A stretch of DNA of 64,000 bases from an uncultured Gammaproteobacteria bacterium (GCA_964425075.1 CAYRKM010000001.1:601827-665826), one strand, 5' to 3'; numbered from the stretch's first letter, positions 14,745 to 48,702 are shown. The notes: generated from the sequence alone by a model not told the origin. Numbers and translations are program-made.

Positions 14745-16550
14745 ATGAAATCATTAAAAGCAGTAGCACAACTAGAACGCTTGGTATGGGCAGATGTATT
14801 AAGAGTAGTAGCAATTTATTTGGTACTTGTAGTTCATGCTTCCACAATGCCCTCATCAGCCTTTCCATTAAGTAATTCTTGGCCATACATAATTTCCTTT
14901 TCAATTGCAAAAATATGCGTGCCACTTTTTGTGATGTTAAGTGGCGCACTTCTTTTGGAAAAAAAGGAAACTTATAAAATGTTTTTCAAAAAAAGAATTT
15001 TAAAAGTGCTAACCCCTTGGATTGTTTGGACAGCGATTTATATGGGAATTAATTACTACACTAGAGATTTTCAACCACAAACTTTTTCTGAATGGAAATA
15101 TTATTTTACGCTGACTTTCTTTACTGAATTGTGGTTCCTACCTCTTATTTTTTCCATTTATTTATTAACTCCTATTATAAGACTTACCATTCCGTTATTA
15201 AAAAAAACTGACAAGATTTACATCATAATTTTGTGGTTTGTGTGGGTGTCGATTTTACCTTTCTTCAATTCAAGTCCCGCTTTTCCAAAACCATTCAACT
15301 CAGGACTTCTTTCATTGGCCGTATATTTTTCCGGGTACTTTCTTTTGGGCCATTTTTTAACAAAAATTAAGTATCCCAAGAATACTTTATGGTTCTCAAG
15401 TGTACTAATTATATTAGGCATACTAATTAATTTTGTTTCACTCTTTTTAGTTAATGAAAACGAATTAGTTCAATACCAAAGTTCTATTTTTGACTATATA
15501 GCACCTGATGAGTGGGGTTCAAACTCAATTGTTATTTCAAAATATGGAGCCAGAATAACCGTCGCATCAACTGAACAAAGCATAAGAGGATTAAGACACG
15601 GTGAGTATCGCCCAGACTTAGTCATATGTGATGATGTGGAAGATTTGAATAGTGTTAAAACACGAGAAGGTAGAGATAAAACATTTCAATGGTTAGTAGG
15701 AGAAGTTTTGCCAATTGGAGATCAGGGGACAAAGATTGTCATTGTAGGAAACCTACTACATGAAGATAGTCTCTTAATGAGATTGAAACAAGGAATCGAA
15801 AACCAAAAGTTAAATGGTAAGTTTTTTGCTTATCCACTCTTAGGCAAGGATAATGAAATTGCATGGAAGGATAAATTTCCTTCTCAAATCGATGTTGAGA
15901 AATTGCGCTCAAGTATAGGAACTGATTCAGCATGGTATAGAGAGTACCTTCTTCGAATCATCTCTGATGCAGAACGACTAGTCCATCCTGAGTGGATTGC
16001 CTATTACGATAAATCGCCTTCTGAAAGAGCTAATGGATTTAGATTTATTGCAACAGGTGTTGATCTTGCTATATCGCAAAAGGACTCAGCCGATTTCACA
16101 GCAATGGTGTCTGCAAAAATATTCGGACAGAAAGATGATCTAAGAGTTTATATCTTACCTTTCCCAATTAACAAAAGACTTAGTTTTCCAGAAACTTTTG
16201 AACAAGCAAAGAATCTTTCTGAAAATTTAGGAAATGGTCTTTACACAATGCTCTATATTGAAGATGTTGGGTATCAACAATCTTTAATCCAACACTTACA
16301 GGGGAATAATATTCCTGCAGTTGGAGTAAAGGTGTCAGGACAAGACAAAAGAGCAAGGCTTGCTTTAATAACCCATCTTATAAAACAAGGTAAAATACTT
16401 TTCCCGAAAAAAGGAGCAGAAGAATTAATACAACAGCTTACAGGTTTTAGCATTGAGAAGCATGACGATTTGGCAGATGCATTTTCCCTTCTAATTCTCA
16501 AGATTCAGGAGATGGATAATAAGCCTACATTCGATTACAGTTTTATCTAG
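14745..16550 (+). pseudogene. Chimeric ORF: acyltransferase-3 family membrane protein N-terminus (aa 1-~246) fused in frame to C-terminal ~355 aa of a phage terminase large subunit (lacks ATPase Walker A)
   Basis: N-terminus has Acyl_transf_3 pattern (LRVVAIYLVLVVHA, VPLFVMLSGALLL); from ~15483 the protein is ~85% identical by eye to residues ~132-490 of TerL at 29787..31313. Confidence 0.6.
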
Positions 16551-16551
16551 G

Positions 16552-16767
16552 CTAAAACAAATCAGACATATTAACCCTCAAAGCTTTAGCCAGCTTTGTC
16601 ATCACCTTAAGCGATGGTGATTTTCTTCCTTGCTCGATGTGACCCATGTGAGTCCTGCTGATATGAATTTTCTCGGCCAACTCTTCTTGAGATAAGCCCA
16701 TATTTTTTCTGAGCTTCTGAATCCTTTTACCCAGCCTTTCTTTTGTTTGTTTTTGACCTAAAATCAT
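16552..16767 (-). CDS. XRE-family HTH transcriptional regulator
   Basis: LRKNMGLSQEELAEKIHISRTHMGHIEQGRKSPSLKVMTKLAKAL helix-turn-helix. Confidence 0.8.
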   Translation of the reverse strand: MILGQKQTKERLGKRIQKLRKNMGLSQEELAEKIHISRTHMGHIEQGRKSPSLKVMTKLAKALRVNMSDLF

Positions 16768-16885: not shown

Positions 16886-17386
16886 ATGGCATTATCTGAA
16901 GAACAGAAAATCAAAATTAAAGAAGAAGAGAAAAAGAAGCTTGAGGAAGAGAAATATAGAGAGAATGTAAAGAAAAATCTTAAAAAGGGACCTTGGTGGA
17001 AACCTAGGGGAGTATTAGCGTGGGTCGCAGTAGTCTTTATAATTGGATGGATTATTTATGCTGTATCTACCAACTCTTCTACAAGTACACCTCCTAAAGA
17101 TACAACTAATCTAGATGGAAATGTTTCCTATAATGATTTGCAATTCAAGGTAAGTAATACCGAACAAAAAGATTGGGAATATTGCCACTTTACTCTAAAT
17201 AATGATTATCATTATCCGGGAAGCTCTTTTAGCGATAAAGCTGGGCCAATTAAGGCTGGTGAAACTGTGTTTATTAATGCGTCAAATTTTGCAAAAAGCG
17301 ATGGTACGAGATTTAATCCCTATTCGGTAAAGCCACAGGCTATAAATGTAGATTGCAACGGAAGATTCGGCTACTGGAAATGGTAA
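16886..17386 (+). CDS. Membrane-anchored DUF4352-like protein with Lys/Glu-rich N-terminal coiled coil
   Basis: KKGPWWK then TM helix then beta-rich extracellular domain; positional equivalent of DUF4352 gene at 31663. Confidence 0.4.
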   Translation: MALSEEQKIKIKEEEKKKLEEEKYRENVKKNLKKGPWWKPRGVLAWVAVVFIIGWIIYAVSTNSSTSTPPKDTTNLDGNVSYNDLQFKVSNTEQKDWEYCHFTLNNDYHYPGSSFSDKAGPIKAGETVFINASNFAKSDGTRFNPYSVKPQAINVDCNGRFGYWKW

Positions 17387-17456: not shown

Positions 17457-18797
17457 ATGGATAACAGTAACGTATTAGCAAGAGCACCTATAGTTTCATT
17501 ACCTACAACTGAATACTGTCTTTATGCCAGAAAATCGACAGAAGATGACGAAAGACAAGCTATGTCAATCGATTCTCAAATTAAGGAGATGAATGATATG
17601 GCTATACGAGACGGTCTGTTTATCAAAGAAATCCGCCAAGAGAAACATTCGGCTAAAATGTCTGGACAAAGGCCAGTATTTGCAAAATTAATTGAAGATA
17701 TTCGAATTGGAATGTTTACAGGCATTTTGACATGGGCGCCAGATAGATTAAGTAGAAACGCAGGCGACTTAGGGATGTTGGTAGATCTTATGGATCAGGG
17801 AAGCTTACATCACATAAAAACCTTTTCTCAAAGTTTTTCTAATAATCCGAATGAGAAATTTTTACTTATGATCCTATGTTCTCAGGCGAAATTAGAAAAT
17901 GATCAAAAAGGAATAAATGTTAAAAGAGGAATTCGTGCAAAATGTTCAATGGGCTGGCGTCCAGGGATGCCGCCCATCGGTTATTACAATAGAGCTTTTA
18001 ATGGAGTGAAAGATATAATTGTAGATCCTGATAGAGGCCCAATAATCAGAGAAATGTTTGATCGAGTAGCAAAAAATGGAGATAGTGGTAAGACTTTAAA
18101 GAAGTGGCTAGACACTTGCTTAACCACTAGAGCTGGAAAGAAAGTGACACTAAGCCAGATTTATATGATGCTTAAAAATCCTTTTTACTACGGGGAATTT
18201 GAATATCCTATAAACAGCGGCAATAGATATAAAGGAGCTCATCCACCTTTAATATCTAAGGAAATATTTGATGAGGTACAAAATCAACTAACTGCACCCA
18301 AGAGAGGCTGGGGATTTAAAACATTTGCCTTTAAAGATTTATTTAAATGTGGGAATTGTGGGTCAAGTGTAATTGGAGAAGAAAGGTGGAGAAAGAGAAA
18401 AGCAAGACCCCCAGTTCATCACGTCTATTATCATTGTACGCGGCAGAAAAATTGGGATTGTAAAGAACCGTATCTAACGGAGGAAAAATTAATAAAAGAA
18501 TTACTACGATATATCAATTTTAACGTTATTGCCCATCCACAAACTATAAATATTACTCCGGAGCTAAAAAGATATATGAATGAATACGAAAAAGCTAGAG
18601 AAATAACCCTCCTCCAGCAAGATATTGATCCAGACCACATCCAGTTTGGAATCTATGAATATTCTCAATATGCACTTAAGAACGGCTCAATTGAGGAGAA
18701 AAGAGAAGTAATAACTTCAATAAAAACACAGCTGTATATTCACAATCAGTTTATTAGTTCATTATCTAAAGTAAATGATGCACTAGTATCTAGTTGA
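17457..18797 (+). CDS. Large serine recombinase (resolvase catalytic domain + recombinase domain + zinc ribbon)
   Basis: YARKSTEDDERQ nucleophile-serine motif, recombinase domain, CGNCGS...YYHCTRQ zinc ribbon; ~80% identical by eye to paralog at 47374. Confidence 0.85.
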   Translation: MDNSNVLARAPIVSLPTTEYCLYARKSTEDDERQAMSIDSQIKEMNDMAIRDGLFIKEIRQEKHSAKMSGQRPVFAKLIEDIRIGMFTGILTWAPDRLSRNAGDLGMLVDLMDQGSLHHIKTFSQSFSNNPNEKFLLMILCSQAKLENDQKGINVKRGIRAKCSMGWRPGMPPIGYYNRAFNGVKDIIVDPDRGPIIREMFDRVAKNGDSGKTLKKWLDTCLTTRAGKKVTLSQIYMMLKNPFYYGEFEYPINSGNRYKGAHPPLISKEIFDEVQNQLTAPKRGWGFKTFAFKDLFKCGNCGSSVIGEERWRKRKARPPVHHVYYHCTRQKNWDCKEPYLTEEKLIKELLRYINFNVIAHPQTINITPELKRYMNEYEKAREITLLQQDIDPDHIQFGIYEYSQYALKNGSIEEKREVITSIKTQLYIHNQFISSLSKVNDALVSS

Positions 18798-18832: not shown

Positions 18833-21505
18833 ATGCCACAACTATTCAAATCAATATATTTCCCTGATTATAATTCTGACAACAAAGAATCAAAATCATT
18901 TACGTTGGCATTTTCAGATAAGGATCAAGACATTTATGAACTATTAAGGACATCATCGAGCTTAGAGGTAAGAAGTTTATTATCAGTATTTTCATTTTCG
19001 GAATTAATTGATAAAGCTAATCAAGAAAGTCTACCTTTAAATACCTACTGTTTATGGAAAATCAGAAAAAACTTACAAAAGATTACCAGTCAAAATAAAA
19101 CTAACATCCAAACTAACTTATTTCCGCTAGATCCAGTACAGGTTACATTTGAAGGAGGAAAAAACTTACCCCTTCAATCTTGGTATCCCTACCTTGAAGG
19201 ATATTCTCCAGATTTTGTCGAGCACATTATAAAGAATTATTTAACACAGAACACAAGAACAGTTTATGATCCTTTTTCTGGATCTGGAACTACCCCTCTT
19301 GTAGCCTCATCTTTGAAGTATGATTCTTACTATTCAGAAATAAATCCCTTATTGCAATTTTTATCACAAACAAAATTCAGAGCTAAAAACATTAAAGATA
19401 AAAAAAAGACTATATCTAAGCTCACGATAATAAATAACACTCTTAAAAGTAAGATTCTAGCTTCTGATGAAGATATAGATCTTCGAGAAAACTATATTAG
19501 AACCTTTGGAAAGAGTAAGTTTTTCGATGATAAAGTTTTCTCTAACGTTTTAAGGACAAAGACGTATCTTAGGAGACTCGCTAAGCTAGATAGCTTGACA
19601 GCGGATTTAGTATGTACGGCAATCCTAGGAAGTTTAATAAAAGTATCTCTTTTAAAAAGGCAAGGTGATCTAAGGTATAAAACTAAAGATGAATTATCTA
19701 AAACAAAGACAGCTGAATATTTTGAAACTATACAGGCAAATCTGCAAAACATAATAAATGACATTTCGAATCTAAAGAAAGCTCCAGAGCCTATCTTCCT
19801 TACAGATGATGCAAGAAAAATAAAAGATTTAGACAAAATTGGTATAGACGCAGTAATAACTAGCCCCCCCTATCTGAACGGTACTAATTACTTTAGGAAT
19901 ACAAAGTTAGAGTTATGGTTTTTGGGATATTTAAAATCATTAAGTGATTTGACTGACTTTAGGCAACAGGCAGTAACTGCGGGTATTAATGACGTCTCTT
20001 TAAAAATTGAAAAGCAAATAGAAAATGAACTTCTTAAGGAGCTTTTGAAAGAAATTAATAAATCTGCATACGATCGAAGAATTCCTAAAATGATTCATGA
20101 TTATTTTGCAGATATGCAAACTATCTTTGAAGGATTAAAGAAACATTTAAATGATAATGCAGTTTTGGCTATCGATTTGGGAGATTCAATTTACAGTAAT
20201 GTTCATGTTAGAACTGACGAAATCCTGATTTCAATATTAAAACAATTAGGATATGAATTTGAGAGAAGCATTGTTTTGCGAAGACGGATATCCAAGAATG
20301 GCGAAGAACTGAGACAGGTGTTATTAATATTTAAATATAGACAATCCAAGCAGCCCAAAATAATCCCTATGAATAAATCTAATAAATGGGATCAGGATTG
20401 GAGTAAGTTTAAAAACGATTTGCCTCATCAGCAAATTCCATTATCAAAGAGAAATTGGGGAGATCCTATACATTCTTTGTGTTCATATCAAGGTAAGTTA
20501 AAGCCTTCTATTGCTCATATGTTAACCTCGATTTTTGTACCACCTAATGGCTCAGTATTAGATATTTTTGCAGGAGTTGGAACTATTCCACTAGAAGCCT
20601 CTCTCCAAGGAAAAAAATCATTTGGATTTGATATAAGTGCTCCTGCTGTTGCGATATCAAGAGCAAAATTATCTAAGATTTCAAGCGATAAAACTTATGA
20701 AATAATAAATGATCTTGAACAATATATTTTAAGCGGTAGAACTGACAAGTCTGAGCTTTCAAAAGCCCAAACATTTGGATTCAATAAGAAATTAATCGAT
20801 TACTTTCATCCAAATACATTAAAAGAGATTTTGTTAGCACGGGAATACTTCGGGAAGATAGGATATGATACACCAGAAAAGTCTATAGTTCTTGCCTCTA
20901 TTCTTCACATTCTTCATGGAAATAGACCGTATGCATTGAGTAGAAGATCTCACGGAATTACACCCTTTGCGCCTACAGGCGAATTTGAATATAAAAACCT
21001 TATAACTAAACTCAAAGAAAAAGTTTCCAGATCATTAAAATATGTTGATAGAAGTAATTTTGTAGAAGGAAATATGTATTTTCAAAATGCTCTAAATGAG
21101 TGGCCTAAAGAGATAAAGAATTTAGATGCAATCATCACAAGTCCGCCTTTCTTTGATAGTACGAGATTTTATCTTTCTAATTGGATGAGGATATGGTTTG
21201 CTGGCTGGGATGAAGAAAACTTCAAAACAGACTCTGTCGATTTCATAGAAGAATTACAAAAGAAAGATTTTTCCGTATATGACTCAATTTTTAAACAAGC
21301 CCGTGAGCGATTGAATAAAAATGGCGTATTTGTGATGCACTTAGGGAAAAGTAACAAGTGTAATATGGCAAAAATATTATCAGAAAAATCCAAGCCGTGG
21401 TTCAATACTTACGATATCTTTGAGGAAAGTGTAAGGACGGGAGAATCACATGGAGTCACAGATAAAGGAACAGTAGTCGACCATCAATATTTGGTATTAA
21501 ATTAG
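18833..21505 (+). CDS. Tandem two-domain DNA methyltransferase (two alpha-class N6A/N4C MTase domains)
   Basis: Motif I VYDPFSGSGTT + motif IV ITSPPYLNGTNYF in first half; VLDIFAGVGTIP + ITSPPFFDSTRFY in second half. Confidence 0.8.
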   Translation: MPQLFKSIYFPDYNSDNKESKSFTLAFSDKDQDIYELLRTSSSLEVRSLLSVFSFSELIDKANQESLPLNTYCLWKIRKNLQKITSQNKTNIQTNLFPLDPVQVTFEGGKNLPLQSWYPYLEGYSPDFVEHIIKNYLTQNTRTVYDPFSGSGTTPLVASSLKYDSYYSEINPLLQFLSQTKFRAKNIKDKKKTISKLTIINNTLKSKILASDEDIDLRENYIRTFGKSKFFDDKVFSNVLRTKTYLRRLAKLDSLTADLVCTAILGSLIKVSLLKRQGDLRYKTKDELSKTKTAEYFETIQANLQNIINDISNLKKAPEPIFLTDDARKIKDLDKIGIDAVITSPPYLNGTNYFRNTKLELWFLGYLKSLSDLTDFRQQAVTAGINDVSLKIEKQIENELLKELLKEINKSAYDRRIPKMIHDYFADMQTIFEGLKKHLNDNAVLAIDLGDSIYSNVHVRTDEILISILKQLGYEFERSIVLRRRISKNGEELRQVLLIFKYRQSKQPKIIPMNKSNKWDQDWSKFKNDLPHQQIPLSKRNWGDPIHSLCSYQGKLKPSIAHMLTSIFVPPNGSVLDIFAGVGTIPLEASLQGKKSFGFDISAPAVAISRAKLSKISSDKTYEIINDLEQYILSGRTDKSELSKAQTFGFNKKLIDYFHPNTLKEILLAREYFGKIGYDTPEKSIVLASILHILHGNRPYALSRRSHGITPFAPTGEFEYKNLITKLKEKVSRSLKYVDRSNFVEGNMYFQNALNEWPKEIKNLDAIITSPPFFDSTRFYLSNWMRIWFAGWDEENFKTDSVDFIEELQKKDFSVYDSIFKQARERLNKNGVFVMHLGKSNKCNMAKILSEKSKPWFNTYDIFEESVRTGESHGVTDKGTVVDHQYLVLN

Positions 21506-22548
21506 TATCCTAAAAGTTTTTTATTTGCGTCAGAAAGTTGTTCGACTAAATTATAGTCTTCAAGTAATTTCTTAATATCGTCAATTCTCCTACTTAAGTC
21601 CGTTGCAGATCTCACTGTCAGTAATCTTGTTACACACGCATTTACATCAATACGAGGATTAAGAATAGGCTCTCTTTTTGATATTAGCGATAAATCAGCT
21701 CCTGTAATCTGAGCTAAGCGTATAAGTTCCTCATTGGTATAAAAATCACTAGGCCACTTGTCGTTTTTCGCTGCATTTGCTTTTGTTGAGAGTAATGCTG
21801 CATTTTGTGAACTGAGAGGATAAAGCCACCTAGATGGCAAAATGTGATCGATTGCCCACGATCCTCTATCAGATTTGTCAATAATGATACCGGTTTTAAA
21901 ACATTTAGAATCAAATCGTTCAAACAATTCGTCTAAATCGACGGTTTGATTCTCACCCTCAAGTAGTAATTCAGCGGCTCTACGTTTGCTGGAAGATTCA
22001 TGTAGTTGTTGTTGCGTTCTTAGTGGGTTTAAGGTTGTGTTAATAACGGCTTTACAGCTTCTGCATTCAAGTTGTTTCTCCAGAGGTCCCCATCCAACGT
22101 GACGATCGAACGCCGACCCGGGAAGAACTCTACCACAGGTTCCGCACTGTTTCCAATAATTAGCTTTATCTGCTACTGCAATTCTAAAAAACGCTCTCCA
22201 AAATCGTTCTATATGCAAATCTCCTGGTAGGGTGTATTCTTCCTTCCAGTTTGTAAAAGGTGTTTCCTTGCCTGACGCATCAGTTAATGGTAATCCTGAC
22301 TGTCTTGAGTGAATATATCCACAAAAATCACATTTCCATTCTTCATTATCGTAAGCTTCTGTTTCCGATAGCAATCGTTCACCAATAGAATGCTTGTTAA
22401 GCATGTTACAACGTAGGCAATTAAAAATTACCCAGACATCATTGGGTTTTGCCCCAGCAATCCTAGGAATTTCCGTCCTGTTTGTAGTTGATCTTCTTGG
22501 CATATTGTTGCTTGTATTATATCCTAAGTGCCTTCTAAAGAAAAACAC
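21502..22548 (-). CDS. HNH-family endonuclease with zinc-ribbon (candidate restriction endonuclease partner of tandem MTase); start uncertain
   Basis: Multiple CxxC pairs (CLRC, CDFCGY, CGTCG, CRSC) and AIDHILP...N HNH-like motif; convergent and 4-bp overlapping with MTase. Confidence 0.55.
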   Translation of the reverse strand: MFFFRRHLGYNTSNNMPRRSTTNRTEIPRIAGAKPNDVWVIFNCLRCNMLNKHSIGERLLSETEAYDNEEWKCDFCGYIHSRQSGLPLTDASGKETPFTNWKEEYTLPGDLHIERFWRAFFRIAVADKANYWKQCGTCGRVLPGSAFDRHVGWGPLEKQLECRSCKAVINTTLNPLRTQQQLHESSSKRRAAELLLEGENQTVDLDELFERFDSKCFKTGIIIDKSDRGSWAIDHILPSRWLYPLSSQNAALLSTKANAAKNDKWPSDFYTNEELIRLAQITGADLSLISKREPILNPRIDVNACVTRLLTVRSATDLSRRIDDIKKLLEDYNLVEQLSDANKKLLGY

Positions 22549-22692
22549 CTATGATTGGAATTCGAACCGCAACCTCGGTATTCAGATGTTTAAAGGTGTG
22601 AATAGTGAGGGTACGGTGAGATACTAACACGTGCTTGCTGAGAGGCTCGGTCTAGAACCTTCTTATCCTTATAACGATTGTCTCACATCAAG

Positions 22693-32223: not shown

Positions 32224-32224
32224 A

Positions 32225-40058: not shown

Positions 40059-40862
40059 ATGACAGAACAAAAAGAAAATAATTATATAACATTACGTGTT
40101 CCAAAGTTTCATAAAACACAACTTTTATTAACAATTGCTTTGATGGTCGCTGCATTTCTTATTGGCTCACTCTGGACAAAACTTCAATACTTGGAAAAAG
40201 GTGGAACTCTTACAAAGGGAGCGACTACTGCAAATGCCCAAGGTGCAGCGCAACAAGTACCACCTCAACAAGCTCCTCCAGAAGACACTACTCCTAAAAA
40301 AGTATCAATTGATGATGACCCGGTTTTAGGTGATAAAAATGCTAAAGTTACACTTATTGACTTCACGGACTATGAATGTCCATTCTGTAAGCGATATTAT
40401 GATGAGACTTTTTCTCAAATAAAAAGAGACTATATTGATACTGGTAAAATGAAATATGTCGTTCGTGATTTACCTTTAAGTTTCCATGCAAATGCTCATA
40501 AAGAAGCGCAAGCTGCAGAGTGCGCACGAGAACAAGGTGGGGACGAAGCATATTTCAAGTATCACGATGAAATATTTAAAAGAACAACCTCAAACGGAAC
40601 AGGTATTGCGCTTGATAAACTTTCAGTAATAGCAAATGATTTAGGCTTAAGTGGTGATACACTACAATCATGTCTTGACGCAGATAAATTTAAAGCAGAG
40701 GTTGATAAAGACTTGGCAGATGCTTCGGCAGTAGGAGCAACTGGCACACCAACATTTTTTATCGGAAAATCAACATCTGATGGTATTATTACAGGTACAA
40801 AAATAGTAGGAGCACAACCATACAGCGCATTTCAGGCAGAAATTGATAAACAACTGAAATAA
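40059..40862 (+). CDS. DsbA-like thioredoxin-fold protein, membrane-anchored
   Basis: N-terminal TM, CPFC active site (DYECPFCKRYY), Thioredoxin_4-like. Confidence 0.75.
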   Translation: MTEQKENNYITLRVPKFHKTQLLLTIALMVAAFLIGSLWTKLQYLEKGGTLTKGATTANAQGAAQQVPPQQAPPEDTTPKKVSIDDDPVLGDKNAKVTLIDFTDYECPFCKRYYDETFSQIKRDYIDTGKMKYVVRDLPLSFHANAHKEAQAAECAREQGGDEAYFKYHDEIFKRTTSNGTGIALDKLSVIANDLGLSGDTLQSCLDADKFKAEVDKDLADASAVGATGTPTFFIGKSTSDGIITGTKIVGAQPYSAFQAEIDKQLK

Positions 40863-40864
40863 TT

Positions 40865-41899
40865 ATGAATTTAGGAGCAGTTTTTTTAACAGGGCTATTT
40901 ACAGGCGGACTTACTTGCCTTGCTGTGCAGGGTGGACTTCTTGCTACAACAATTGCCCAGCGTGAAGAGGAAAAACTTAAGGAGAAAACTAAAACATCCG
41001 GTAATGCCCTGCCAATTCTTTCCTTTCTTGTTGCAAAAGTGGTTGCCTACACTATTCTCGGGTTCTTATTAGGCTGGCTTGGTTCGGTTGTTCAGTTATC
41101 TTTAACAGCTACGGTTATTTTGACAGTTGCAGTCGCTATCTTTATGATCGGTACTGCATTGAACCTTTTAAATGTTCATCCAATATTCCGTTACTTCATT
41201 ATCCAGCCACCTAAGTTTCTAACAAGACTCGTGAGGAATCAGTCAAAAAGTAACAGTATTTTTGCACCAGCTATGCTTGGAGCATTTACTGTATTTATTC
41301 CATGCGGGACTACACAGGCAATGATGGCATTAGCAATTGCCTCTGGTAACCCCCTATATGGAGCAGCAATACTTGCCGCATTTACGTTAGGCACTTCTCC
41401 AGTATTCTTTACACTTGGGTATCTTGCAACAAAACTTGGAGACGCAATGCATCGAAAATTCTTGAAGGTTGCAGCCTATGCGCTTATTCTTCTTGCTGTC
41501 TATAATCTGAATGGAGCAATAGCTCTAACTGGAAGTAACCTGACGCTTGAGAATGCATGGACAAATTTTTACTGCACATTCACTTTCTGTGAGAGGGATT
41601 TTGCACCAACAGCGCAAGCTGCAGTCCCTGTATCAGATGCCACTATAACAATTAATAATGATGGATATAGCCCGAATAACCTTACTGTCAAAGCAGGATC
41701 AAAAGTTACTTTGAAAATTGTCAATGAAGGTGGTGGAGGTTGTACCCAGGCCTTCACCCTACCAAAATATAATATTCAAAAAATAGTTCCGATAGGAAGT
41801 TCTGATCAGGTAACCTTTACTGCGCCGAATGAACCTGGCACGCAACTTGCTTTTATGTGTAGTATGGGGATGTACCGGGGAACAATTAACGTGATATAA
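40865..41899 (+). CDS. CcdA/DsbD-like thiol-disulfide transporter membrane domain fused to C-terminal cupredoxin-like domain
   Basis: Cys in TM1 (GLTCLAVQ) and TM4 (FIPCGTTQ) as in CcdA; C-terminal beta-sandwich with Cys/Met (GGGGCTQ...FMCSMGMY). Confidence 0.55.
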   Translation: MNLGAVFLTGLFTGGLTCLAVQGGLLATTIAQREEEKLKEKTKTSGNALPILSFLVAKVVAYTILGFLLGWLGSVVQLSLTATVILTVAVAIFMIGTALNLLNVHPIFRYFIIQPPKFLTRLVRNQSKSNSIFAPAMLGAFTVFIPCGTTQAMMALAIASGNPLYGAAILAAFTLGTSPVFFTLGYLATKLGDAMHRKFLKVAAYALILLAVYNLNGAIALTGSNLTLENAWTNFYCTFTFCERDFAPTAQAAVPVSDATITINNDGYSPNNLTVKAGSKVTLKIVNEGGGGCTQAFTLPKYNIQKIVPIGSSDQVTFTAPNEPGTQLAFMCSMGMYRGTINVI

Positions 41900-41903
41900 A
41901 CTT

Positions 41904-42131
41904 ATGCAAACAGTAAAATTAAACATTTATGGCATGCATTGTACGAGTTGCGCTTTCAATATTGATGGTGAGCTTGAAGATATGGAAGGAGTTAAAGAAT
42001 CAAAGACAAATTATGCAAAGCAGCAAACTGAAGTAACTTTTGATCCTAAAAAAATTTCACCAGATAAGATTATAAGCATTATTAAAAAGCTTGATGATAG
42101 TTATGATGCTGAAGTTAATAAAGAAGAGTAA
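41904..42131 (+). CDS. copZ: Heavy-metal-associated (HMA) copper chaperone CopZ-like
   Basis: 75 aa with GMHCTSCA MxCxxC motif. Confidence 0.85.
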   Translation: MQTVKLNIYGMHCTSCAFNIDGELEDMEGVKESKTNYAKQQTEVTFDPKKISPDKIISIIKKLDDSYDAEVNKEE

Positions 42132-42136
42132 CATGT

Positions 42137-42646
42137 ATGACAACAGAAAAGAAAGTAATCGGCGGTATTGCACTTTTAACTATAGCCATATTAGTTGGTG
42201 GAGTTTTCTTTTTGTCGGCTAGCTCTAATCAATCCACTTCTGGTAACTCAAATAACAATTCCGATACATCTGTCCCCGAAAGTGAAATTGTTGTTCGTAA
42301 TGGTATGCATTGGCATCCGAAACTATCGATCTATATTAACGGAGAAAAACAGCCTTTCACAAACGGTATTGGTTTAAATGGTGCAGTACATAACCCTATT
42401 CATACTCATGATGACGCTGACAAAGATATTGTTCACATGGAGTTTCAGGGTGTTGTTAGCAAGGAAGATACAAAATTAAGTAACTTCTTTAAGATATGGG
42501 GTAAAGACTTTTCATCAACTCAGATTTTTGATAAGAAAAATGGAGAAGAAGGAACTGTTAAAATGATGGTTAACGGAAAAGAAAACACAGAATTTCAAAA
42601 TTATATGATGAAGGATGGCGATAATATTGAGATACGCTATGAATAA
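42137..42646 (+). CDS. Secreted His-rich hypothetical protein
   Basis: N-terminal TM; HNPIHTHDDADKDIVHMEF His cluster. Confidence 0.35.
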   Translation: MTTEKKVIGGIALLTIAILVGGVFFLSASSNQSTSGNSNNNSDTSVPESEIVVRNGMHWHPKLSIYINGEKQPFTNGIGLNGAVHNPIHTHDDADKDIVHMEFQGVVSKEDTKLSNFFKIWGKDFSSTQIFDKKNGEEGTVKMMVNGKENTEFQNYMMKDGDNIEIRYE

Positions 42647-42851
42647 AGAAATAAAAACAATCGCTCATCTTGCTTGTCCGAAGTGCGGAAAATTACAAAC
42701 AGCAAAAATGCCTACAGATGCCTGTCAGCATTTTTATAAATGTCAAAGCTGTGGTGAAACCATAAAGCCAAAAGAAGGAGATTGTTGTGTATTCTGTTCT
42801 TATGCTGATACAAAATGTCCGCCAAAACAAGCGGAGCAAATGATGATATGA
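42642..42851 (+). CDS. Small Cys-rich (zinc-ribbon-like) protein
   Basis: CPKCG...CQSCG...CCVFCSY Cys pairs in ~70 aa. Confidence 0.4.
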   Translation, partial: NKEIKTIAHLACPKCGKLQTAKMPTDACQHFYKCQSCGETIKPKEGDCCVFCSYADTKCPPKQAEQMMI

Positions 42852-44458
42852 ATACTATGCAAAGAATACTTATTGCTGTCGTTATAGGTATTGCGCTTCT
42901 GGGAGCAGGAATATATTTGTATTCAAATTCTCAGAGGCAAAGAGAAGGATCGAGTAAGACGGGAGAATATTCAAAAGCGGTAAAGAATTATCCTGAAGCA
43001 AAATCTTCTGAGGTTGTAGAGCTAAAGAATGGTGATTCGTACAATTTAACGGCGAGTATAGTAAAGAGAAAAATTAATGGAACAGAAGTAAAAATGCTCG
43101 CCTATAACGGCTCGATTCCAGGCCCACTTATCAAAGTACCACAAGATGCTGAAATTACCATTAATTTCAAAAACGACACTGATGTAGATACAGCCCTACA
43201 TTCACATGGAGTCAGGCTTGAGAATCAATTTGATGGGGTGGTAGATGTTACCCAGAAGGCAATTCCAGTTGGCGGTACTTTTACTTACAAAGTGAAATTT
43301 CCGGATGAAGGGATCTTCTGGTATCATCCTCACTTTCGAGAAGATTATGCTCAAGAACTTGGACTCTATGGTAATTACCTTGTAGCACCTGAACAAAAAG
43401 ACTATTGGGCTGAAGTAGATCGAGAAGAAGCGCTGTTTTTAGATGATATTCTTTTGCAAAACGGGCAGGTAGCAGCTTTCAGCAGAGCAGGGGCAGATCA
43501 TACCTTAATGGGAAGATTTGGGAACGTCATGCTTGTGAATGGTAACGACAATTATAAATTATCGGTTAAACAAGGAGAGAGGATCCGTTTCTATATAACC
43601 AATTCAGCTAATACCAGAGTATTTAATTTTTCTATTCCCAATGCCCGAATGAAGTTAGTAGGCGCGGACAATGGCAAATACGAGCGCGAGGAGTGGGTCG
43701 ATTCGATTGTAATCGGACCGTCTGAACGCTCAGTTATAGAAATCTGGTTTGATCAGGCAGGAGATTATCAGATAGTTAATAAAACCCCTGAAAAAACATA
43801 CACGATGGGCACAATAGCCGTTGCATCTGCTCCAGTAACTACATCATATCTTCTCGTGCCTCGGGTAAATCAAGATTTTATTAATTCTTTATCCTCAATT
43901 CGTCCGCTCTTTACTAAACCTGCTGATAAGACACTTAATATGACTCTTACGATGATGGGAAATATGATGCAGCAAAATCAGAACAATGAGGGTATGCACA
44001 ACATGCATGGAGGCCAAATGATGCCAAATGAAGAAATGCCTTTGAATGACGGAACAGTTGAAAAAATAGAATGGGAAGATGATATGGGACAGATGAACGT
44101 AATGTCCAATACAAAAATGATTACATGGAAACTTGTTGACACAGAAACAAAAGCGGAAAATATGGATATTAAATGGCAGTTTAAAAAAGGAGACAAGATA
44201 AAACTCAAGCTTATCAATGATCCGAAAGCTCAACACCCTATGCAACATCCCATCCATGTTCACGGCCAGCGGTTCTTAGTACTGAATACAAATGGAGTAC
44301 CGAATCAAAACTTGGTTTGGAAAGACACAGTGCTCGTGCAGACCGGTGACACAGTAGAACTACTTGTCGATATGGATAATCCTGGCGACTGGGTGCTTCA
44401 CTGTCATATACCTGAGCATATGGAAGCCGGGATGATGTCACAGTTTGAAGTAATCTAA
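42815..44458 (+). CDS. Multicopper oxidase (CueO/laccase-like) with Met-rich insert (start may be Met12 at 42848)
   Basis: WYHPH and HCHIPEHMEAGMM copper-site motifs; Met-rich segment MMGNMMQQNQNNEGMHNMHGGQMM. Confidence 0.85.
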   Translation: MSAKTSGANDDMNTMQRILIAVVIGIALLGAGIYLYSNSQRQREGSSKTGEYSKAVKNYPEAKSSEVVELKNGDSYNLTASIVKRKINGTEVKMLAYNGSIPGPLIKVPQDAEITINFKNDTDVDTALHSHGVRLENQFDGVVDVTQKAIPVGGTFTYKVKFPDEGIFWYHPHFREDYAQELGLYGNYLVAPEQKDYWAEVDREEALFLDDILLQNGQVAAFSRAGADHTLMGRFGNVMLVNGNDNYKLSVKQGERIRFYITNSANTRVFNFSIPNARMKLVGADNGKYEREEWVDSIVIGPSERSVIEIWFDQAGDYQIVNKTPEKTYTMGTIAVASAPVTTSYLLVPRVNQDFINSLSSIRPLFTKPADKTLNMTLTMMGNMMQQNQNNEGMHNMHGGQMMPNEEMPLNDGTVEKIEWEDDMGQMNVMSNTKMITWKLVDTETKAENMDIKWQFKKGDKIKLKLINDPKAQHPMQHPIHVHGQRFLVLNTNGVPNQNLVWKDTVLVQTGDTVELLVDMDNPGDWVLHCHIPEHMEAGMMSQFEVI

Positions 44459-44535
44459 ATTGTGGAGGAGATGATGACTATGATGGATGAAAAGAGGCAT
44501 AAGCATTAAACAATATCAAGAGGAGAGATCAACAT

Positions 44536-45030
44536 ATGGCAAAGGAACATGAACATAATGTCGAGCCAATAAGAGGAAGCATTTTTGTTTTAACTCTAAA
44601 ACTTGCACTCATACTGCTTATTATAGACTCTCTTTACAGCCTTATATATTATCTCCTTAATTTAGGCTTTGGTATTCCTTTTGATTTCCATCACCACATT
44701 TCAGTAACGCTCTTTATCACACAAGTAGGAAAGATCATACTTGAAATTTTTCTGATTACTTATGTGGTTTTGCAGTGGGCAAATAATACCTATTTTCTTA
44801 CAGATAAGCATTTAATACGAAGAACTGGAATACTTAGCACCGAAGAAGATGTATTTCATTTCGAAAATATCAGATCTATTACAACACACCAGTCTTTATT
44901 AGGAAGGCTTTTTAACTACGGAGACGTTATATTAAAAACAAGTGCTTCAGGAGGGTATCAAGGCGAAGTTACCCTGACAGGAATCTCCAATCCATATAAA
45001 TACGAAAACGCTCTCAAAAAATCCTTTTGA
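44536..45030 (+). CDS. Membrane protein with bacterial PH domain (bPH_2/YdbS-like)
   Basis: Two TM helices then YFLTDKHLIRRTGILSTEEDVFHFENIRSI pattern of bPH_2. Confidence 0.6.
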   Translation: MAKEHEHNVEPIRGSIFVLTLKLALILLIIDSLYSLIYYLLNLGFGIPFDFHHHISVTLFITQVGKIILEIFLITYVVLQWANNTYFLTDKHLIRRTGILSTEEDVFHFENIRSITTHQSLLGRLFNYGDVILKTSASGGYQGEVTLTGISNPYKYENALKKSF

Positions 45031-45033
45031 CTG

Positions 45034-45054
45034 TGTACTACAATTAGTAGTACA
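45034..45054 (+). promoter_or_regulatory. Cop-box-like operator TGTACTACA-ATT-AGTAGTACA upstream of second P-type ATPase
   Basis: 8/9-bp inverted repeat arms; TTGACT -35-like hexamer at 45027-45032. Confidence 0.45.
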
Positions 45055-45081
45055 AATATATTATGCAGATGAGAAATAGTT

Positions 45082-47304
45082 ATGAGTAACAAAACATATA
45101 CCTGTCCAATGCATCCTGAAGTCAGAAAAGACAAGCCTGGTGTTTGTCCTAAATGTGGCATGGCACTTGTTGAAGTAAAGAATGATAAACATGGAATGCA
45201 TGAAAGTCATTTGAGCCATGAGCATACAATGAAATCCCTTGATCAAATGTCATTTTGGGAAAAATTCAAGATGAGTATGACTATGACAATGGGTATGGAC
45301 CATACAGGGAAAGCAGGACGTGAGATGGCGAAGCTAATGGAAGAGGATATTCGAAATAAGTTTTTGGTCTCTCTTCTTTTGACACTTCCAATTGTTGCCT
45401 ATTCTCCACTTGGAAAGAACATCTTTGGTCTTAATCTACCAACGCCGATTCCTGAGAATTGGTTAATGCTGTTACTGACAACTCCTGTTTATTTTTATTG
45501 TGGTTGGATATTCCTTTACTCAAGTTATATTGCTCTTAAACAAAAGACGCTCAATATGGCAGTTTTGATTGCCGTTGGCATTACTGCGGCCTATGTCTTT
45601 AGTATTGTTTTAACTCTTTTAGGATCTGAAGAATCTTTTTATGAAGCAGCAGCAATGCTTACTACTTTTGTCCTCTTTGGTCATTGGATGGAAATGAAAT
45701 CAAGGCGTGGCACAACTGATGCCCTTCAGGCCCTATTTAATCTCGTTCCCCCTCAAGCACGAGTAATGAGAAATGGCAAAGAGCAGTTAATTCCTACCTC
45801 AGAAGTTGTATTAGGAGATATTGTCGTTCTTAAGCCTGGCGATAAAGTGCCGGTTGACGGGGAAATTATAGAAGGAGAAACGTCAATAGACGAATCACTT
45901 GTTACAGGTGAATCAATACCTGTTGCCAAGAAAAAGGGAGATAGTGTCATTGGCGGTTCCATCAATACTTCAGGATCAGTACAATTCAATGCCACAAAAG
46001 TAGGAGGAGATACAGCGCTAGCACAGATTGTAAAGATGGTAGAAACAGCTCAGAACTCAAAAGCTCCCGGGCAGAAGCTTGCTGATAGGTTTGCCAAGTA
46101 TTTAGTTATTGTAGCTGTTGGAGGAGGATTACTAACCTTTGCAGTATGGTTTTTAATTCTCGGCCAACCATTCTTATTTGCAGTCACATTTGCCATTTCA
46201 ACAGTTGTTATTGCCTGTCCTGATGCTCTTGGACTTGCAACACCTACAGCGGTGGCAGTAGGAACAGGACTTGGAGCCAAACACAACATTTTGATTAAAG
46301 ACGCTCCGACACTTGAACAGGTATCCAAGATCCAAGCCGTAGTGTTAGATAAAACAGGCACTCTCACAGAAGGAAAGCCACAAGTGACAGGTATTGCAAC
46401 CGCAAAAGGGTTTTCAGAAAAAGAAGCACTAAGACTCGTGGGAGCCGCAGAGGTAAAATCTTCTCATCCTTTAGCAAACGCCGTAATCGAAGAGCTGAAA
46501 AAAAGAAAACTTGCTTTGCCTACATCAATAGAAAAATTTGAGAATCTTTCTGGGCTTGGCGTAAAAGCCACAGTAGAAGGTAAAAAGGTACTTGTCGGGA
46601 CAGTGAAATTGATGAAAGAAAATAGCGTTGATGTAAAGCCTCTCGAAAACAAAATTAATGAATTTTTAGAAAACGGAAATACTATCATGCTTCTTGCAGT
46701 TGAAGGTACCATTTCAGCTCTTGTAGGAGCTGCAGATCCAATAAAAGAGAATGCAAAAAAAGCTATAGATAAATTAAATGAATTAGGCATAGAAACTGCA
46801 ATGATCACTGGGGACAACGAAAAAACAGCACAAGTAGTTGCGAAGAAGATTGGTATCAAACGAGTATTTGCCGATGTCATGCCTGAAGATAAAGCTTCAT
46901 ATGTTAAAAAGTTGCAGCAAGAAGGAAAATTTGTGGCTATGGTTGGCGATGGTGTAAACGATGCGCCTGCACTTGCTCAAGCAGATATAGGAATTGCTAT
47001 TGGTGCCGGAACGGATGTAGCAATAGAAACAGCGAAAGTTGTACTTATGAAATCTGATCCAGCAGATGTGCTTCGCGCTATTAGACTCTCCAAAGCAACA
47101 GTAAGGAAAATGAAACAAAACCTATTCTGGGCATCTATTTATAATCTTTTGGCAATTCCTGTGGCTGCTGGAGTTCTTTACCCTGCTTTCCAGATTTCGC
47201 TACGTCCCGAAATATCAGCTCTTCTGATGAGCATTTCCTCAATCATTGTTGCAACAAATGCAGTCCTCCTTAATAGAGCAGAAAAAGACCTTATAAGTGT
47301 GTAA
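45082..47304 (+). CDS. Heavy-metal P1B-type ATPase with N-terminal CxxC x2 metal-binding domain, His-rich stretch and non-canonical CPD TM6 motif
   Basis: YTCPMHPE...CPKCGM; HGMHESHLSHEH; IACPDALGLATP; DKTGTLT; GDGVNDAP. Confidence 0.85.
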   Translation: MSNKTYTCPMHPEVRKDKPGVCPKCGMALVEVKNDKHGMHESHLSHEHTMKSLDQMSFWEKFKMSMTMTMGMDHTGKAGREMAKLMEEDIRNKFLVSLLLTLPIVAYSPLGKNIFGLNLPTPIPENWLMLLLTTPVYFYCGWIFLYSSYIALKQKTLNMAVLIAVGITAAYVFSIVLTLLGSEESFYEAAAMLTTFVLFGHWMEMKSRRGTTDALQALFNLVPPQARVMRNGKEQLIPTSEVVLGDIVVLKPGDKVPVDGEIIEGETSIDESLVTGESIPVAKKKGDSVIGGSINTSGSVQFNATKVGGDTALAQIVKMVETAQNSKAPGQKLADRFAKYLVIVAVGGGLLTFAVWFLILGQPFLFAVTFAISTVVIACPDALGLATPTAVAVGTGLGAKHNILIKDAPTLEQVSKIQAVVLDKTGTLTEGKPQVTGIATAKGFSEKEALRLVGAAEVKSSHPLANAVIEELKKRKLALPTSIEKFENLSGLGVKATVEGKKVLVGTVKLMKENSVDVKPLENKINEFLENGNTIMLLAVEGTISALVGAADPIKENAKKAIDKLNELGIETAMITGDNEKTAQVVAKKIGIKRVFADVMPEDKASYVKKLQQEGKFVAMVGDGVNDAPALAQADIGIAIGAGTDVAIETAKVVLMKSDPADVLRAIRLSKATVRKMKQNLFWASIYNLLAIPVAAGVLYPAFQISLRPEISALLMSISSIIVATNAVLLNRAEKDLISV

Positions 47305-47373
47305 TTTTGATTAATCCTCATAGTATTTTGCGTCTGGACTTCAAAGAACGGTTGCGGTACCTTGTCCCCTGAT

Positions 47374-48702
47374 ATGAACTACCAGAATGAATTATTACAG
47401 CAACCAACTCAAACACAACCGCTGGTTATTGAATATTGTCTCTACGCACGAAAATCCACAGAAGATGACGAGCGCCAAGCGATGTCAATCGATTCTCAAA
47501 TTAAAGAGATGACTGACATGGCGATCAAAGAAGGACTCTTTATCAAAGAAATCAGACGAGAAAGTCATTCTGCTAAAATGTCAGGACAACGACCAGTCTT
47601 CAATCAACTTCTCAATGACTTAAGAAATGGTCTATTCACCGGAATTCTCACATGGGCTCCGGATCGATTATCAAGAAATGCAGGAGATTTAGGAATGCTG
47701 GTTGATATGATGGATGGCGGAAAACTCATTCACATTAAAACATTTACGCAGGCATTCTCAAACAGTCCAAGCGATAAATTTTTACTCATGATTCTCTGCT
47801 CTCAAGCAAAACTCGAGAATGACCAAAAAGGGATAAATGTTAAACGAGGTATCAGAGCTAAATGCAATATGGGATGGAGACCAGGGATGCCACCAATCGG
47901 TTATTTCAACAGAGCAATGGCTGGGATAAAAGATATTATTCCTGACCCTGAAAGAGCACCATTTGTGACAGAAATGTTTGAAAGAGTTGCGAGGAACGGA
48001 GATAGTGGACGAACACTCAAAAAATGGCTGGATACATGCCTTACAACAAGGGCGGGAAAGAGAGTCACGCTAAGTCAGATTTATCTCATGCTCAAGAATC
48101 CTTTCTATTACGGGGAATTTGAATATCCAATTGGAAGCGGTAATTGGTATAAGGGATCACATAAGCCATTAATTACCAAAGAGCTATTTGATCAAGTCCA
48201 GAAACAACTTACAGTGCCATTTAAAAAAGCAAAATGGGGAAGCAAAATGTTTACCTTCAAAGAACTCTTTAAATGTGCAAGCTGCGGATCATTAGTAATT
48301 GGTGAGGACAGATATAGAAAGAGAAAATATGGAGAGCCGAGGTATCATATCTACTATCATTGTACTAGACAAAAGAAGTACGGCTGTCCTGAGCCATACT
48401 TAACAGAAGAAAAGCTTGTAAAGCAAATTCTTCGATATCTTAATTTTATGTACATGGCACACCCGCAAATATTTACCTTCAAGGAATTTATAAAACAAAG
48501 CATGGAAGCATATAAGAAAATGAGAGACGAAATTCTCTGGGCGCAAGATATAAACCCTGAGAATAAGCCTGTACATTTTATGGATTATGCAAATTATATT
48601 TTCAGAAATGGAACACTGCAAGAAAAACGAGAAATAACGAATATCCTCAATCGACAACTCTATATACACAACGAAACGGTCACTTCAGTACCCCTTATCT
48701 AG
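47374..48702 (+). CDS. Large serine recombinase (paralog of 17457..18797)
   Basis: Same motif set; conserved upstream TGCGGTACCTTGT..CCTGA.ATG shared with paralog. Confidence 0.85.
   Translation: MNYQNELLQQPTQTQPLVIEYCLYARKSTEDDERQAMSIDSQIKEMTDMAIKEGLFIKEIRRESHSAKMSGQRPVFNQLLNDLRNGLFTGILTWAPDRLSRNAGDLGMLVDMMDGGKLIHIKTFTQAFSNSPSDKFLLMILCSQAKLENDQKGINVKRGIRAKCNMGWRPGMPPIGYFNRAMAGIKDIIPDPERAPFVTEMFERVARNGDSGRTLKKWLDTCLTTRAGKRVTLSQIYLMLKNPFYYGEFEYPIGSGNWYKGSHKPLITKELFDQVQKQLTVPFKKAKWGSKMFTFKELFKCASCGSLVIGEDRYRKRKYGEPRYHIYYHCTRQKKYGCPEPYLTEEKLVKQILRYLNFMYMAHPQIFTFKEFIKQSMEAYKKMRDEILWAQDINPENKPVHFMDYANYIFRNGTLQEKREITNILNRQLYIHNETVTSVPLI

Follow-up and report, generated by a model that had tools for sequence, protein, structure and literature searches.

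Staphylococcal cassette chromosomes (SCC, including SCCmec and composite SCC) use large serine recombinases (Ccr) to bring resistance genes into one site, the 3' end of a conserved housekeeping gene, where they stack in tandem as composite islands, the older ones decaying. For serine integrases in general, tRNA genes are unusual targets. Among phage satellites, the capsid-forming phage-inducible chromosomal islands (cfPICIs) encode both the small and the large terminase subunit (TerS and TerL). The features of phage-inducible chromosomal islands (PICIs) at large are taken here as summarised in 10.1101/2020.12.28.424599, where the tycheposons of Prochlorococcus are also described (Hackl et al.). 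Tycheposons integrate at tRNA genes of streamlined genomes, are modular and carry adaptive or defence cargo, their islands accumulate at the tRNA, and they include a PICI-like subset with packaging genes; a lineage-specific tyrosine recombinase is present in 910/937, a minority has large serine recombinases, and replication hallmark genes and an inward-facing integrase complete the description (10.1101/2020.12.28.424599). Here we analysed a 64,000-nucleotide stretch of bacterial DNA (CAYRKM010000001.1:601827-665826; "the window"), in which the interval of about 15495-49537 probably comprises two members of one Patescibacteria-wide family of satellite-like integrative elements, placed head-to-tail at the 3' end of a tRNA-Gln(CUG) gene. 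We call them element A (about 15495-22638), which appears to be an older remnant, and element B (about 22639-49468, 26.8 kb), which is complete; their large serine recombinases are Rec1 and Rec2. An earlier note on this DNA had set the limits of the island at 14745-48702, which are corrected here.

The locus resembles PICIs and cfPICIs in having an integrase at one end, a repressor-type regulator, packaging genes without a full virion set, accessory cargo and a backbone of ~9-10 kb. It differs from them in its large serine recombinase acting at tRNA 3' ends, in a cargo of up to 15 kb and in its patescibacterial host. Moreover, TerS and TerL stand here without capsid, portal or head-tail genes, whereas classical PICIs have TerS or capsid-remodelling genes and cfPICIs a full head set. 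All open reading frames (ORFs) of element B were compared with Pfam and those of the backbone with PHROGs as well, and defence genes were sought with PADLOC. Neither the Pfam scan nor the PHROGs scan of the backbone detected a portal, capsid (major capsid included), tail or lysis domain in any ORF of element B (22639-49468), in contrast to a complete temperate prophage, and no relaxase, coupling-protein or type IV secretion system Pfam domain was found in any ORF of elements A or B, in contrast to an integrative conjugative or mobilisable element. Element B thus has the packaging genes and lacks the full virion and lysis set, as phage satellites do. A replication module of its own, which satellites have, was not found: the conserved backbone contains no primase, replicase or replication-initiator domain, its sole helicase sits in a variable slot, and this too sets it apart from PICIs. 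Its dependence on a helper would be a further, presumed, trait.

Tycheposons are matched in tRNA-targeted integration and in the build-up of islands, as shown below by 52/52 loci and by tandem pairs. The two differ in that the serine enzyme is transcribed outward, to the tRNA, and in the hallmark genes, which here are p197, p247, a ParB-methyltransferase, TerS and TerL; of the hallmark functions listed for tycheposons (primase, helicase, excisionase; 10.1101/2020.12.28.424599), none was found in the backbone. SCC shares a serine recombinase and resistance cargo stacked in tandem at one site, but it targets rlmH (orfX), is without a terminase/ParB-methylase module and has Ccr in an internal position rather than at the edge. 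Serine-integrase phages of the phiC31, Bxb1 and A118 types share the three-domain recombinase, and the predicted attP would resemble theirs, an imperfect inverted repeat around a short core; the element is without virion or lysis genes, and its closest relatives among 50,697 phage records reach at most 31% identity (recombinase) and 28% (TerL). On this comparison the element would be like a PICI-type satellite in its working and like a tycheposon in its ecology, yet it would fail defining features of each.

Relatives were collected with the terminase and with the recombinases. The TerL protein search scored 8000 candidates, 3493 of them at E <= 1e-10, and the best 120 of these 3493 were 63-100% identical. 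A scan with a Rec1/Rec2 alignment, one genome per species, yielded 75 loci, and 26 window proteins were mapped by tBLASTN onto ~80 loci (loci and contigs are cited below by L numbers). The gene order was first seen in the neighbourhoods of three TerL matches, from p247 through the recombinase, and it recurred in Levy-, Woese-, Davies-, Roizman-, Gottesman- and Saccharibacteria genomes (about 80 loci); 10 IMG/VR contigs have the same architecture. In full it reads left-end motifs, p197, slot 1 (defence-type genes on the minus strand), p247, ParB-N/methylase, (methylase), TerS-like protein, TerL, XRE-type regulator, small exported protein, slot 2, large serine recombinase, slot 3, a spacer of ~180 bp and the tRNA. 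In 36 related loci, TerL and the recombinase gene lie between 90 bp and 9.6 kb apart (end to start), the 10-kb flank fetched per locus setting a ceiling on what could be measured; in the two copies of the window they are 0.9 kb and 16.1 kb apart. The conserved cargo slot that the earlier note had proposed is thereby borne out, and the module without cargo, which it had suggested looking for in related genomes, exists many times. Its building unit of TerL, HTH regulator, DUF4352 and recombinase genes, by contrast, turned out to be the right-hand third of a larger element. Some members combine cassettes of both types: L004 has a TerL2-type terminase (82%), an XRE1-type regulator (54%) and a small protein of the copy-1 type (61%), and L074 has a B-type helicase (96%) and p247 (92%) together with a TerL 74% identical to TerL2 and an XRE1-type regulator. 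The backbones are therefore mosaics.

The right-hand boundary of the family is given by the tRNA (tRNA calls were made with ARAGORN and Rfam). In all of the 52 loci that have a downstream tRNA, the nearest one lies on the opposite strand with its 3' end toward the recombinase, and it is within 600 bp in 32 of the 61 loci with enough sequence. Where the recombinase is at least 57% identical to Rec1 or Rec2 and a downstream tRNA is present, that tRNA is always tRNA-Gln; recombinases below ~57% lie mostly beside tRNA-Glu, -Lys, -Ser or -Arg, several of them still beside tRNA-Gln. The identity of the target tRNA tracks the recombinase clade. Between recombinase and tRNA, the spacer is conserved right up to the tRNA, and in eight loci (L009, L011, L012, L014, L016, L017, L019 and L072) a sequence 67-89% identical to that of element B lies 3' of the recombinase.

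The left-hand boundary was drawn from alignments. The complete genome CP065002.1 (L082) is 92.5% identical to the window over 22635-31712 and nothing aligns further left; the alignment of L002 with element B starts at 22637, and the 44 bp of 22637-22680 are 100% identical to positions 10725-10768 of L072. Seven metagenome contigs have the left end of B and differ from one another in their upstream DNA. The shared left end begins (C)TGAGAGGCTCGGTCTAGAACC, i.e. (C)TGAG..., and tRNA-Gln, from its 3' end, reads CTGGGAGTCAGGGATTTGAACC; the left arm of B therefore resembles the acceptor and T arm of its target. By these alignments the crossover would fall in a stretch of about 3 nt, 22638-22640 on the left and, where the tRNA has its 3' end, 49467-49469 on the right. 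Joining the two ends of B gives a predicted attP of ...CCCGTCTCAG-CTG-AGAGGCTCGGTCTAGAACC (also ...CCCGTCTCAG-CTG-AGAGGCTCGG...), which holds the 12-bp palindrome TCTCAGCTGAGA, while the predicted attL and attR have only (G)CTG..GAG in common. Such an attP would be the kind of site used by serine integrases. Further inside the left end, the motifs TGTCTCAC..GGCTAAATGAGACAAAYGAGACA and AATGATATAKTTTGATATAGT are conserved in 20 loci, distant clades included, and might serve as operator, promoter or pac site.

Element A ends where element B begins. Its spacer end (22590-22638) can be aligned with that of B (49421-49473), therefore the DNA between Rec1 and element B consists of the slot-3 cargo and the right arm of A. 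The right arm of A is also very similar to the spacer found ahead of a following element in L022/L095 and L100. Comparable arrangements occur elsewhere: L072 and L012 have a further left end immediately after the recombinase and its spacer, and pairs of elements 22-26 kb apart were found in JBBTVD010000006 (L022, L014) and CAYOTA010000001 (L012, L019). As a newcomer that uses the tRNA lands beside the tRNA, B probably arrived later, A being the older of the two, which fits the truncation of A. We considered whether 22552-22590 is a displaced half of a tRNA-Gln gene and rejected it: no tRNA was called there by relaxed ARAGORN or Rfam, and the junction lies ~50 bp rightward.

Element A retains TerL', the genes for XRE, the small protein and Rec1, the restriction-modification pair of slot 3 and the right arm. 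The 601-aa ORF at 14745-16550 has an Acyl_transf_3 domain at residues 14-265 and, from residue ~250 onward, reads through in frame into TerL, entered at residue ~134; in the nucleotide alignment the two parts meet at about 15490-15505. The TerL of copy 1 is therefore a fragment, as the earlier note had recognised. A deletion took away the left half of element A and joined TerL to a chromosomal acyltransferase gene in this chimera. TerL' keeps Walker B and the nuclease and has lost the Walker A region; as the break lies past the invariant Walker A (TerL2 residues 69-76), TerL' cannot be an active ATPase, and it is a pseudogene fragment. Orthologues of XRE1, 54-77% identical, come after TerL in five loci (L004, L022, L028, L035 and L076). 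The small protein of A (16886-17386) gave neither a DUF4352 Pfam match nor a PHROG match, and is 61% identical to a 163-aa protein 3' of XRE in L004/L005/L006. In slot 3, a double DNA methylase (18833-21505, plus strand; N6_N4_Mtase, PADLOC MTase_II E = 4e-70) is followed by an HNH-type endonuclease (21502-22548, minus strand; phrog_1035 endonuclease VII and Cas9 HNH models).

The earlier note had regarded the island as two diverged copies of a four-gene module, and all eight ORFs that it named are present at its coordinates (Table 1). Self-BLASTN of the window gave exactly two paired segments in the interval, the rest of which is without alignment: the TerL pair (15506-16510 against 30188-31195, 72.8% nucleotide identity) and the recombinase pair (17510-18522 against 47430-48448, 72.0%). 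The proteins are 76% (TerL, 357 aa), 68% (recombinase) and 31% (XRE) identical, and no significant match was obtained between the two small proteins (E = 0.18). The estimate of ~80-85% was thus too high, and two of the four genes, for XRE and for the small protein, are positional counterparts only; DUF4352 is matched by the protein of copy 2 and not by the one called DUF4352-like in copy 1. Closer relatives of each copy occur in other genomes (Rec2 95% identical to L009, TerL2 92% to P0002, TerL1 82% to L076, Rec1 77% to L035), therefore no recent duplication took place, and the view of related recombinase-borne elements in tandem holds. The stretch from Rec1 to TerL2 is not filler, being the post-recombinase cargo of element A and the left half of element B. 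Overlooked before were the target at the tRNA-Gln 3' end, two more variable slots and the nature of copy 1 as a truncated remnant.

Table 1. Features of elements A and B and of their immediate borders (window positions)
Feature	Position	Strand	Evidence or remark
Acyltransferase gene, 5' part (chromosomal, Acyl_transf_3)	14745..15495	+	PF01757 E = 8e-29
TerL' of element A	15496..16550	+	C-terminal ~350 aa; 76% to TerL2 residues 117-472; Terminase_6C
XRE-type HTH regulator of A (XRE1, type-1 cassette)	16552..16767	-	HTH_3 E = 1.5e-16; 31% to XRE2
Small membrane-anchored protein of A	16886..17386	+	Counterpart by position of 31663-32223
Rec1, large serine recombinase of A, intact ORF	17457..18797	+	Resolvase, Recombinase, Zn_ribbon_recom
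Slot-3 cargo of A, restriction-modification-like pair	18833..22548		Between Rec1 and right arm of A
Right arm (spacer end) of A	22549..22638	+	Abuts element B; tandem junction
Left end of B	22639..22790	+	T-arm-like half-site GAGAGGCTCGGTCTAGAACC, CCTTATA, TGTCTCAC..GGCTAAATGAGACAAACGAGACA, AATGATATATTTTGATATAGT
p197 (190 aa), all-helical, conserved	22810..23382	+	Candidate regulator or directionality factor
Variable slot 1 of B, 1026-aa ResIII/DEAD helicase-family protein	23386..26466	-	Pfam ResIII, DEAD, Helicase_C
p247, helical, C-terminal HTH	26540..27283	+	Conserved
ParB-N/DNA methylase fusion (27334-28626) and second DNA methylase (28617-29372)	27334..29372	+	ParB_N, N6_N4_Mtase, phrog_498 E = 4e-102
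TerS-like small HTH protein	29362..29790	+	HTH_Tnp_1_2; five PHROG small-terminase families, E = 2.5e-9 to 3e-4
TerL of B (TerL2), full length, 508 aa	29787..31313	+	phrog_38 E = 2e-78; all catalytic motifs
XRE-type regulator of B (XRE2, type-2 cassette)	31314..31580	-	HTH_3 E = 2e-13
DUF4352 exported protein of B	31663..32223	+	PF11611 E = 4e-28; phrog_806 E = 1e-34
Slot 2 of B, 15.0 kb of copper-resistance genes, three operons	32275..47319	+	Pfam
Conserved 54-bp leader and Rec2, large serine recombinase of B	47320..48702	+	Resolvase, Recombinase, Zn_ribbon_recom; phrog_95 integrase E = 5e-60
Slot 3 of B, p190, secreted or membrane protein	48695..49267	-	Presence/absence across loci
Right arm of B, non-coding spacer	49290..49466	+	Conserved; ending ...CCCGTCTCAG
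tRNA-Gln(CUG), integration target	49467..49537	-	ARAGORN; Rfam 58.6 bits

The satellite-like character rests on the packaging genes. Walker A, Walker B and the nuclease Asp residues are invariant across 28 TerL family members, and a TerS-like protein and a ParB-methylase are typical neighbours of the phage large terminase. In two IMG/VR contigs of 31-33% G+C, L091 (1229-7548) and L092 (114-5215), the gene for a TerL with 46-47% identity to TerL2 precedes a portal gene; in L091 further genes encode an SPP1 gp7-like head-morphogenesis protein, a scaffold/protease-like one and a major head protein. Both are genuine phage-type contigs and candidate relatives or helpers of the family. Beside them, the element looks like the packaging part of such a phage that breaks off immediately ahead of the portal gene and is continued by a regulator, a cargo bay and an integrase.

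Taken together, these observations suggest the following mechanism. The recombinase would join attP, made of the spacer end and the left end, to the 3' end of the tRNA, and the newest element would settle beside the tRNA, B having arrived after A. After excision, the element's own TerS and TerL would package its DNA into the capsids of a helper phage, as phage satellites do, and the ParB-methylases would protect that DNA in new hosts. The XRE gene and its exported partner may form an immunity or exclusion cassette, and slot contents are probably exchanged by recombination between the conserved flanks of different elements. A satellite with its own terminase and with borrowed heads and tails would be the most economical reading of this gene content. 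A broader proposal goes beyond these two elements: phylum-wide, undescribed capsid-less satellites of Patescibacteria, with their own TerS and TerL and inserted by serine recombination at tRNA 3' ends, would ride in the capsids of related siphovirus-like phages of the Candidate Phyla Radiation (CPR) and be the main vehicle for defence and metal-resistance genes, their repeated arrivals giving rise to tandem islands. We put this forward tentatively, as a possibility that is rather doubtful at present.

Several points weigh against the proposed mobile satellite family. Neither excised circles nor empty sites nor encapsidated copies were seen, and no unoccupied tRNA-Gln with the same flanks occurs among the fetched loci. 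The junctions of the two attP arms in L072, L012, L096 and L100 can all be tandem junctions. The left-end pattern had no match in IMG/VR and seven in metagenomes, and the three of these with a spacer-like right arm on the 5' side could each equally be a tandem junction. A large serine recombinase normally needs a full attB, and the weakest step is the entry of B into the attR-like site of A, which requires that the spacer end of A replaces the native B arm. The action of TerS and TerL on the element's own DNA is presumed, no helper phage is known, and B, with its 26.8 kb, may exceed a small helper capsid. Neither a directionality factor nor a replication gene was identified by the domain scans or from the p197 and p247 models. 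Finally, no description of the family was found in open-access full text, a coverage that excludes most subscription journals, and "previously undescribed" holds for that coverage only.

The missing excision product would also be expected if both copies were decayed prophage remnants, with TerS, TerL and the methylases as relics and nothing mobile now. Element A is visibly decayed, having a truncated TerL and no left half, and the order of ParB-methyltransferase, TerS and TerL matches the one that opens the morphogenesis module of the phage contig L091. We nevertheless consider this explanation unlikely, since independent decay would not end right after TerL in ~40 loci of different classes, and would preserve neither a full-length TerL with invariant catalytic motifs nor the left-end motifs and spacer; the copy of B in CP065002.1, 92.5% identical, lies moreover in a different flank.

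The strong conservation of TerL also fits a cellular role. The terminase might be domesticated for defence, degrading or mis-packaging phage DNA, or the locus might resemble a gene transfer agent with its head genes elsewhere; slots 1 and 3 often hold defence-type genes (the helicase, the restriction-modification pair, a Dsr1-like gene in a putative element C described below), and capsid genes are absent from the element. Such a role seems quite improbable, however, as TerL always accompanies the recombinase and the att-proximal motifs, and TerS, TerL and ParB-methylase form a typical packaging cassette; PADLOC has no terminase-based system and gave only methyltransferase matches for the neighbouring genes.

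The tandem arrangement itself could be that of one composite island, assembled from repeated four-gene modules, with A and B moving as a unit now or in the past. The composite SCC islands of staphylococci excise jointly in this way, and the co-orientation of the two recombinases would allow the left end of A, if extant, to excise both elements with the attR of B. Against this, the left attachment site of A is deleted, two of the four "module" genes are non-homologous between the copies, and element B occurs alone, with identical ends and without A, in L082, L002, L097/L101, L098 and L099, only separate or differently paired elements having been seen so far in other genomes; we therefore hold joint movement to be very improbable. 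Segmental duplication within the genome, or conserved core synteny beside Lon, can hardly be credited, for although Lon lies downstream of the recombinase in three other loci too (L019, L026, L028), a conserved tRNA-Gln target beside Lon explains this shared neighbourhood, DNA identity between the copies is only 72-73% with non-homologous genes between the shared ones, each copy is far closer to relatives elsewhere, and the arrangement is not core, other members lying at Glu, Lys, Ser and Arg tRNAs with differing left flanks, that of the copy in CP065002.1 being wholly different.

Slot 2 of element B is bounded by the end of the alignment with L002 at 32274 and by the start of the alignments to seven loci at 47320, 54 bp 5' of the recombinase start. 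Its genes encode CsoR (PF02583), two P1B-ATPases, a CopZ-like HMA protein, a multicopper oxidase, cupredoxin domains, a BlaI/CopY-type repressor, a BlaR1-like protease and DsbA-like and DsbD-like proteins. Both E1-E2 ATPases carry HMA or HMBD domains, the Cu-oxidase has three domains and the repressor is of the Penicillinase_R type. With its ATPases, chaperone-like HMA protein, repressors and multicopper oxidase, the slot has the make-up of a cop/cso-type copper-resistance locus, in agreement with the ~15 kb of copper-resistance genes that had been reported between DUF4352 and the recombinase of copy 2; copper specificity is suggested by family membership. The description of these genes as bracketed by tandem terminators was right on the left, where two terminator hairpins follow the DUF4352 gene directly (32226-32275), and not on the right, where the stretch from the CopA2 stop (47304) to the recombinase start (47374) holds no terminator-like site.

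The palindrome CTACTACA-N3-TGTAGTAG precedes each of the three cop operons (32288-32306, 40022-40040 and 45034-45054), the third site being the variant TGTACTACA-N3-TAGTAGTACA, and a TTGACA -35 hexamer lies just 5' of the palindrome, or overlaps its start, at the first two sites. The copper genes thus appear to come with their own, predicted, promoters and operators. As a separate observation, the palindrome resembles a cop-box-type operator and is a candidate target of the BlaI/CopY-family repressor (38615-38992).

The start of the cargo is 85% identical in CP065002.1, which puts the acquisition of the copper load before the divergence of these two elements. Pieces of it were also found behind recombinases of other clades and at other tRNA targets, as in L036 (tRNA-Lys; 67-77% DNA identity to 38648-42062), and in five further loci (L007, L020, L012, L072, L015). 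Elsewhere slot 2 holds other genes, namely a two-component system with copper genes in L002/L003 and MarR, MFS and oxidoreductase genes in L004/L005.

Among the remaining genes of element B, the slot-1 helicase-family protein gave weak PADLOC matches to PbeA and to a type IV restriction endonuclease and is a candidate defence gene; in L004 the slot is filled by other genes. Structural models of p197 (pLDDT 85, all-helical) and p247 (pLDDT 90, generic C-terminal HTH) gave no function, the former having no informative match and the latter a generic HTH only; from these models, either protein could be a directionality factor or a regulator. The XRE2 orthologue in L082 is called at 74 aa, and the true start of XRE2 is probably 31538. 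Rec1 and Rec2 both contain PF00239, PF07508 and PF13408, the domains of large serine recombinases, and have an identical YARKSTEDD motif that includes the presumed catalytic serine; the 54-bp leader before the recombinase is conserved in copy 1 too. The gene for p190 is present between recombinase and spacer in three loci (L007, L008, L020) and missing in four (L012, L072, L014, L016), where the spacer follows the recombinase directly, and p190 is therefore an insertion in a third variable position.

The islands are flanked in the window by housekeeping genes (SecF, CCA-adding enzyme, RecJ, AspRS, GluRS, Lon), and G+C is 32-41%. Close relatives of the window proteins come from metagenome-assembled genomes of Levy-, Woese- and Roizmanbacteria, and the host is therefore a member of the Patescibacteria/CPR, ultra-small bacteria. 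The exchange of genes among these mostly uncultured organisms with genomes of ~1 Mb is little understood. With its well-defined ends, its three slots for cargo and a tRNA target that can be predicted, the family would be a concrete route for the transfer of copper resistance and anti-phage defence, and one 27-kb element amounts to about 2% of a ~1.3-Mb genome (size taken from the related CP065002.1). Its serine recombinases, which have tRNA genes as natural targets and att sites that can be read, may also serve as integration tools. Finally, the family raises the question of whether a satellite with a terminase only, and no capsid proteins, can take over the heads of a helper, which the candidate helper-type phage contigs with related TerL make testable.

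A probable third member of the family, element C, starts at about 53.72 kb and runs off the window (53721-64000). It begins with GTGACCC, a repeat of the 3' end of the adjacent tRNA-Glu(CUC) (53633-53706), and has the left-end motifs GGGTTCGGAACC..CCTTATAG, TGTCTCAC..GGCTAAATGAGACAAATGAGACA and AATGATATAGTTTGATATAT; no p197 homologue was found in it. In L026 (CP011214) a left-end motif also lies just past Lon, as in the window. A 50-bp repeat (22676-22725 and 53773-53822) was considered as attL and attR of a 31-kb Lon-containing element and rejected, because the motif starts many unrelated family members; as it sits at the left ends of so many, it marks the starts of elements B and C. Within the putative element C, a 123-aa protein (56368-56739, plus strand) combines a coiled-coil N-terminus with an FtsK gamma domain (KOPS-binding winged helix, E = 8e-28). 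An 825-aa ORF (61334-63811, minus strand) corresponds to the C-terminal two thirds of Dsr1 (PADLOC E = 2e-100, profile 457-1225 of 1227), and the SIR2 N-terminal part would fall at or past the window end. It stands in an apparent operon with genes for 555-aa and 736-aa proteins, both without family matches, and in L022 and L074 homologues of the 555-aa gene belong to the variable left-hand part of an element.

Further observations were made on the sequences analysed. The IMG/VR contigs L083, L084 and L085, which are of the element type and have 52% G+C, contain two consecutive TerL genes between TerS and the recombinase. On the 5' side of tRNA-Gln, within the 49538-49598 region upstream of it, there is a second copy of the first 17 nt of the tRNA (attagacgaactccca, 49583-49598), preceded by an inverted copy (ccattcgtctaatg); this gives a 44-bp insert between direct repeats, which may be the footprint of an older recombination. 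The Logan contigs L001, L102 and L103 (SRR14271365, SRR14271372) are 100% identical to the window and end at 32320, 27683, 49485 and 49622; the ends at 32320, just inside the cargo, and at 49485, in tRNA-Gln and 18 nt from the crossover, may reflect strain heterogeneity or shared repeats and tRNA. The gene for the CCA-adding enzyme (1383-2870, minus strand) contains, at 2516-2684, a tandem repeat with a unit of 60 bp (~2.8 copies, 94-95% identical) that encodes NSFGTVGVKYNT(P/T)NELASDD three times.

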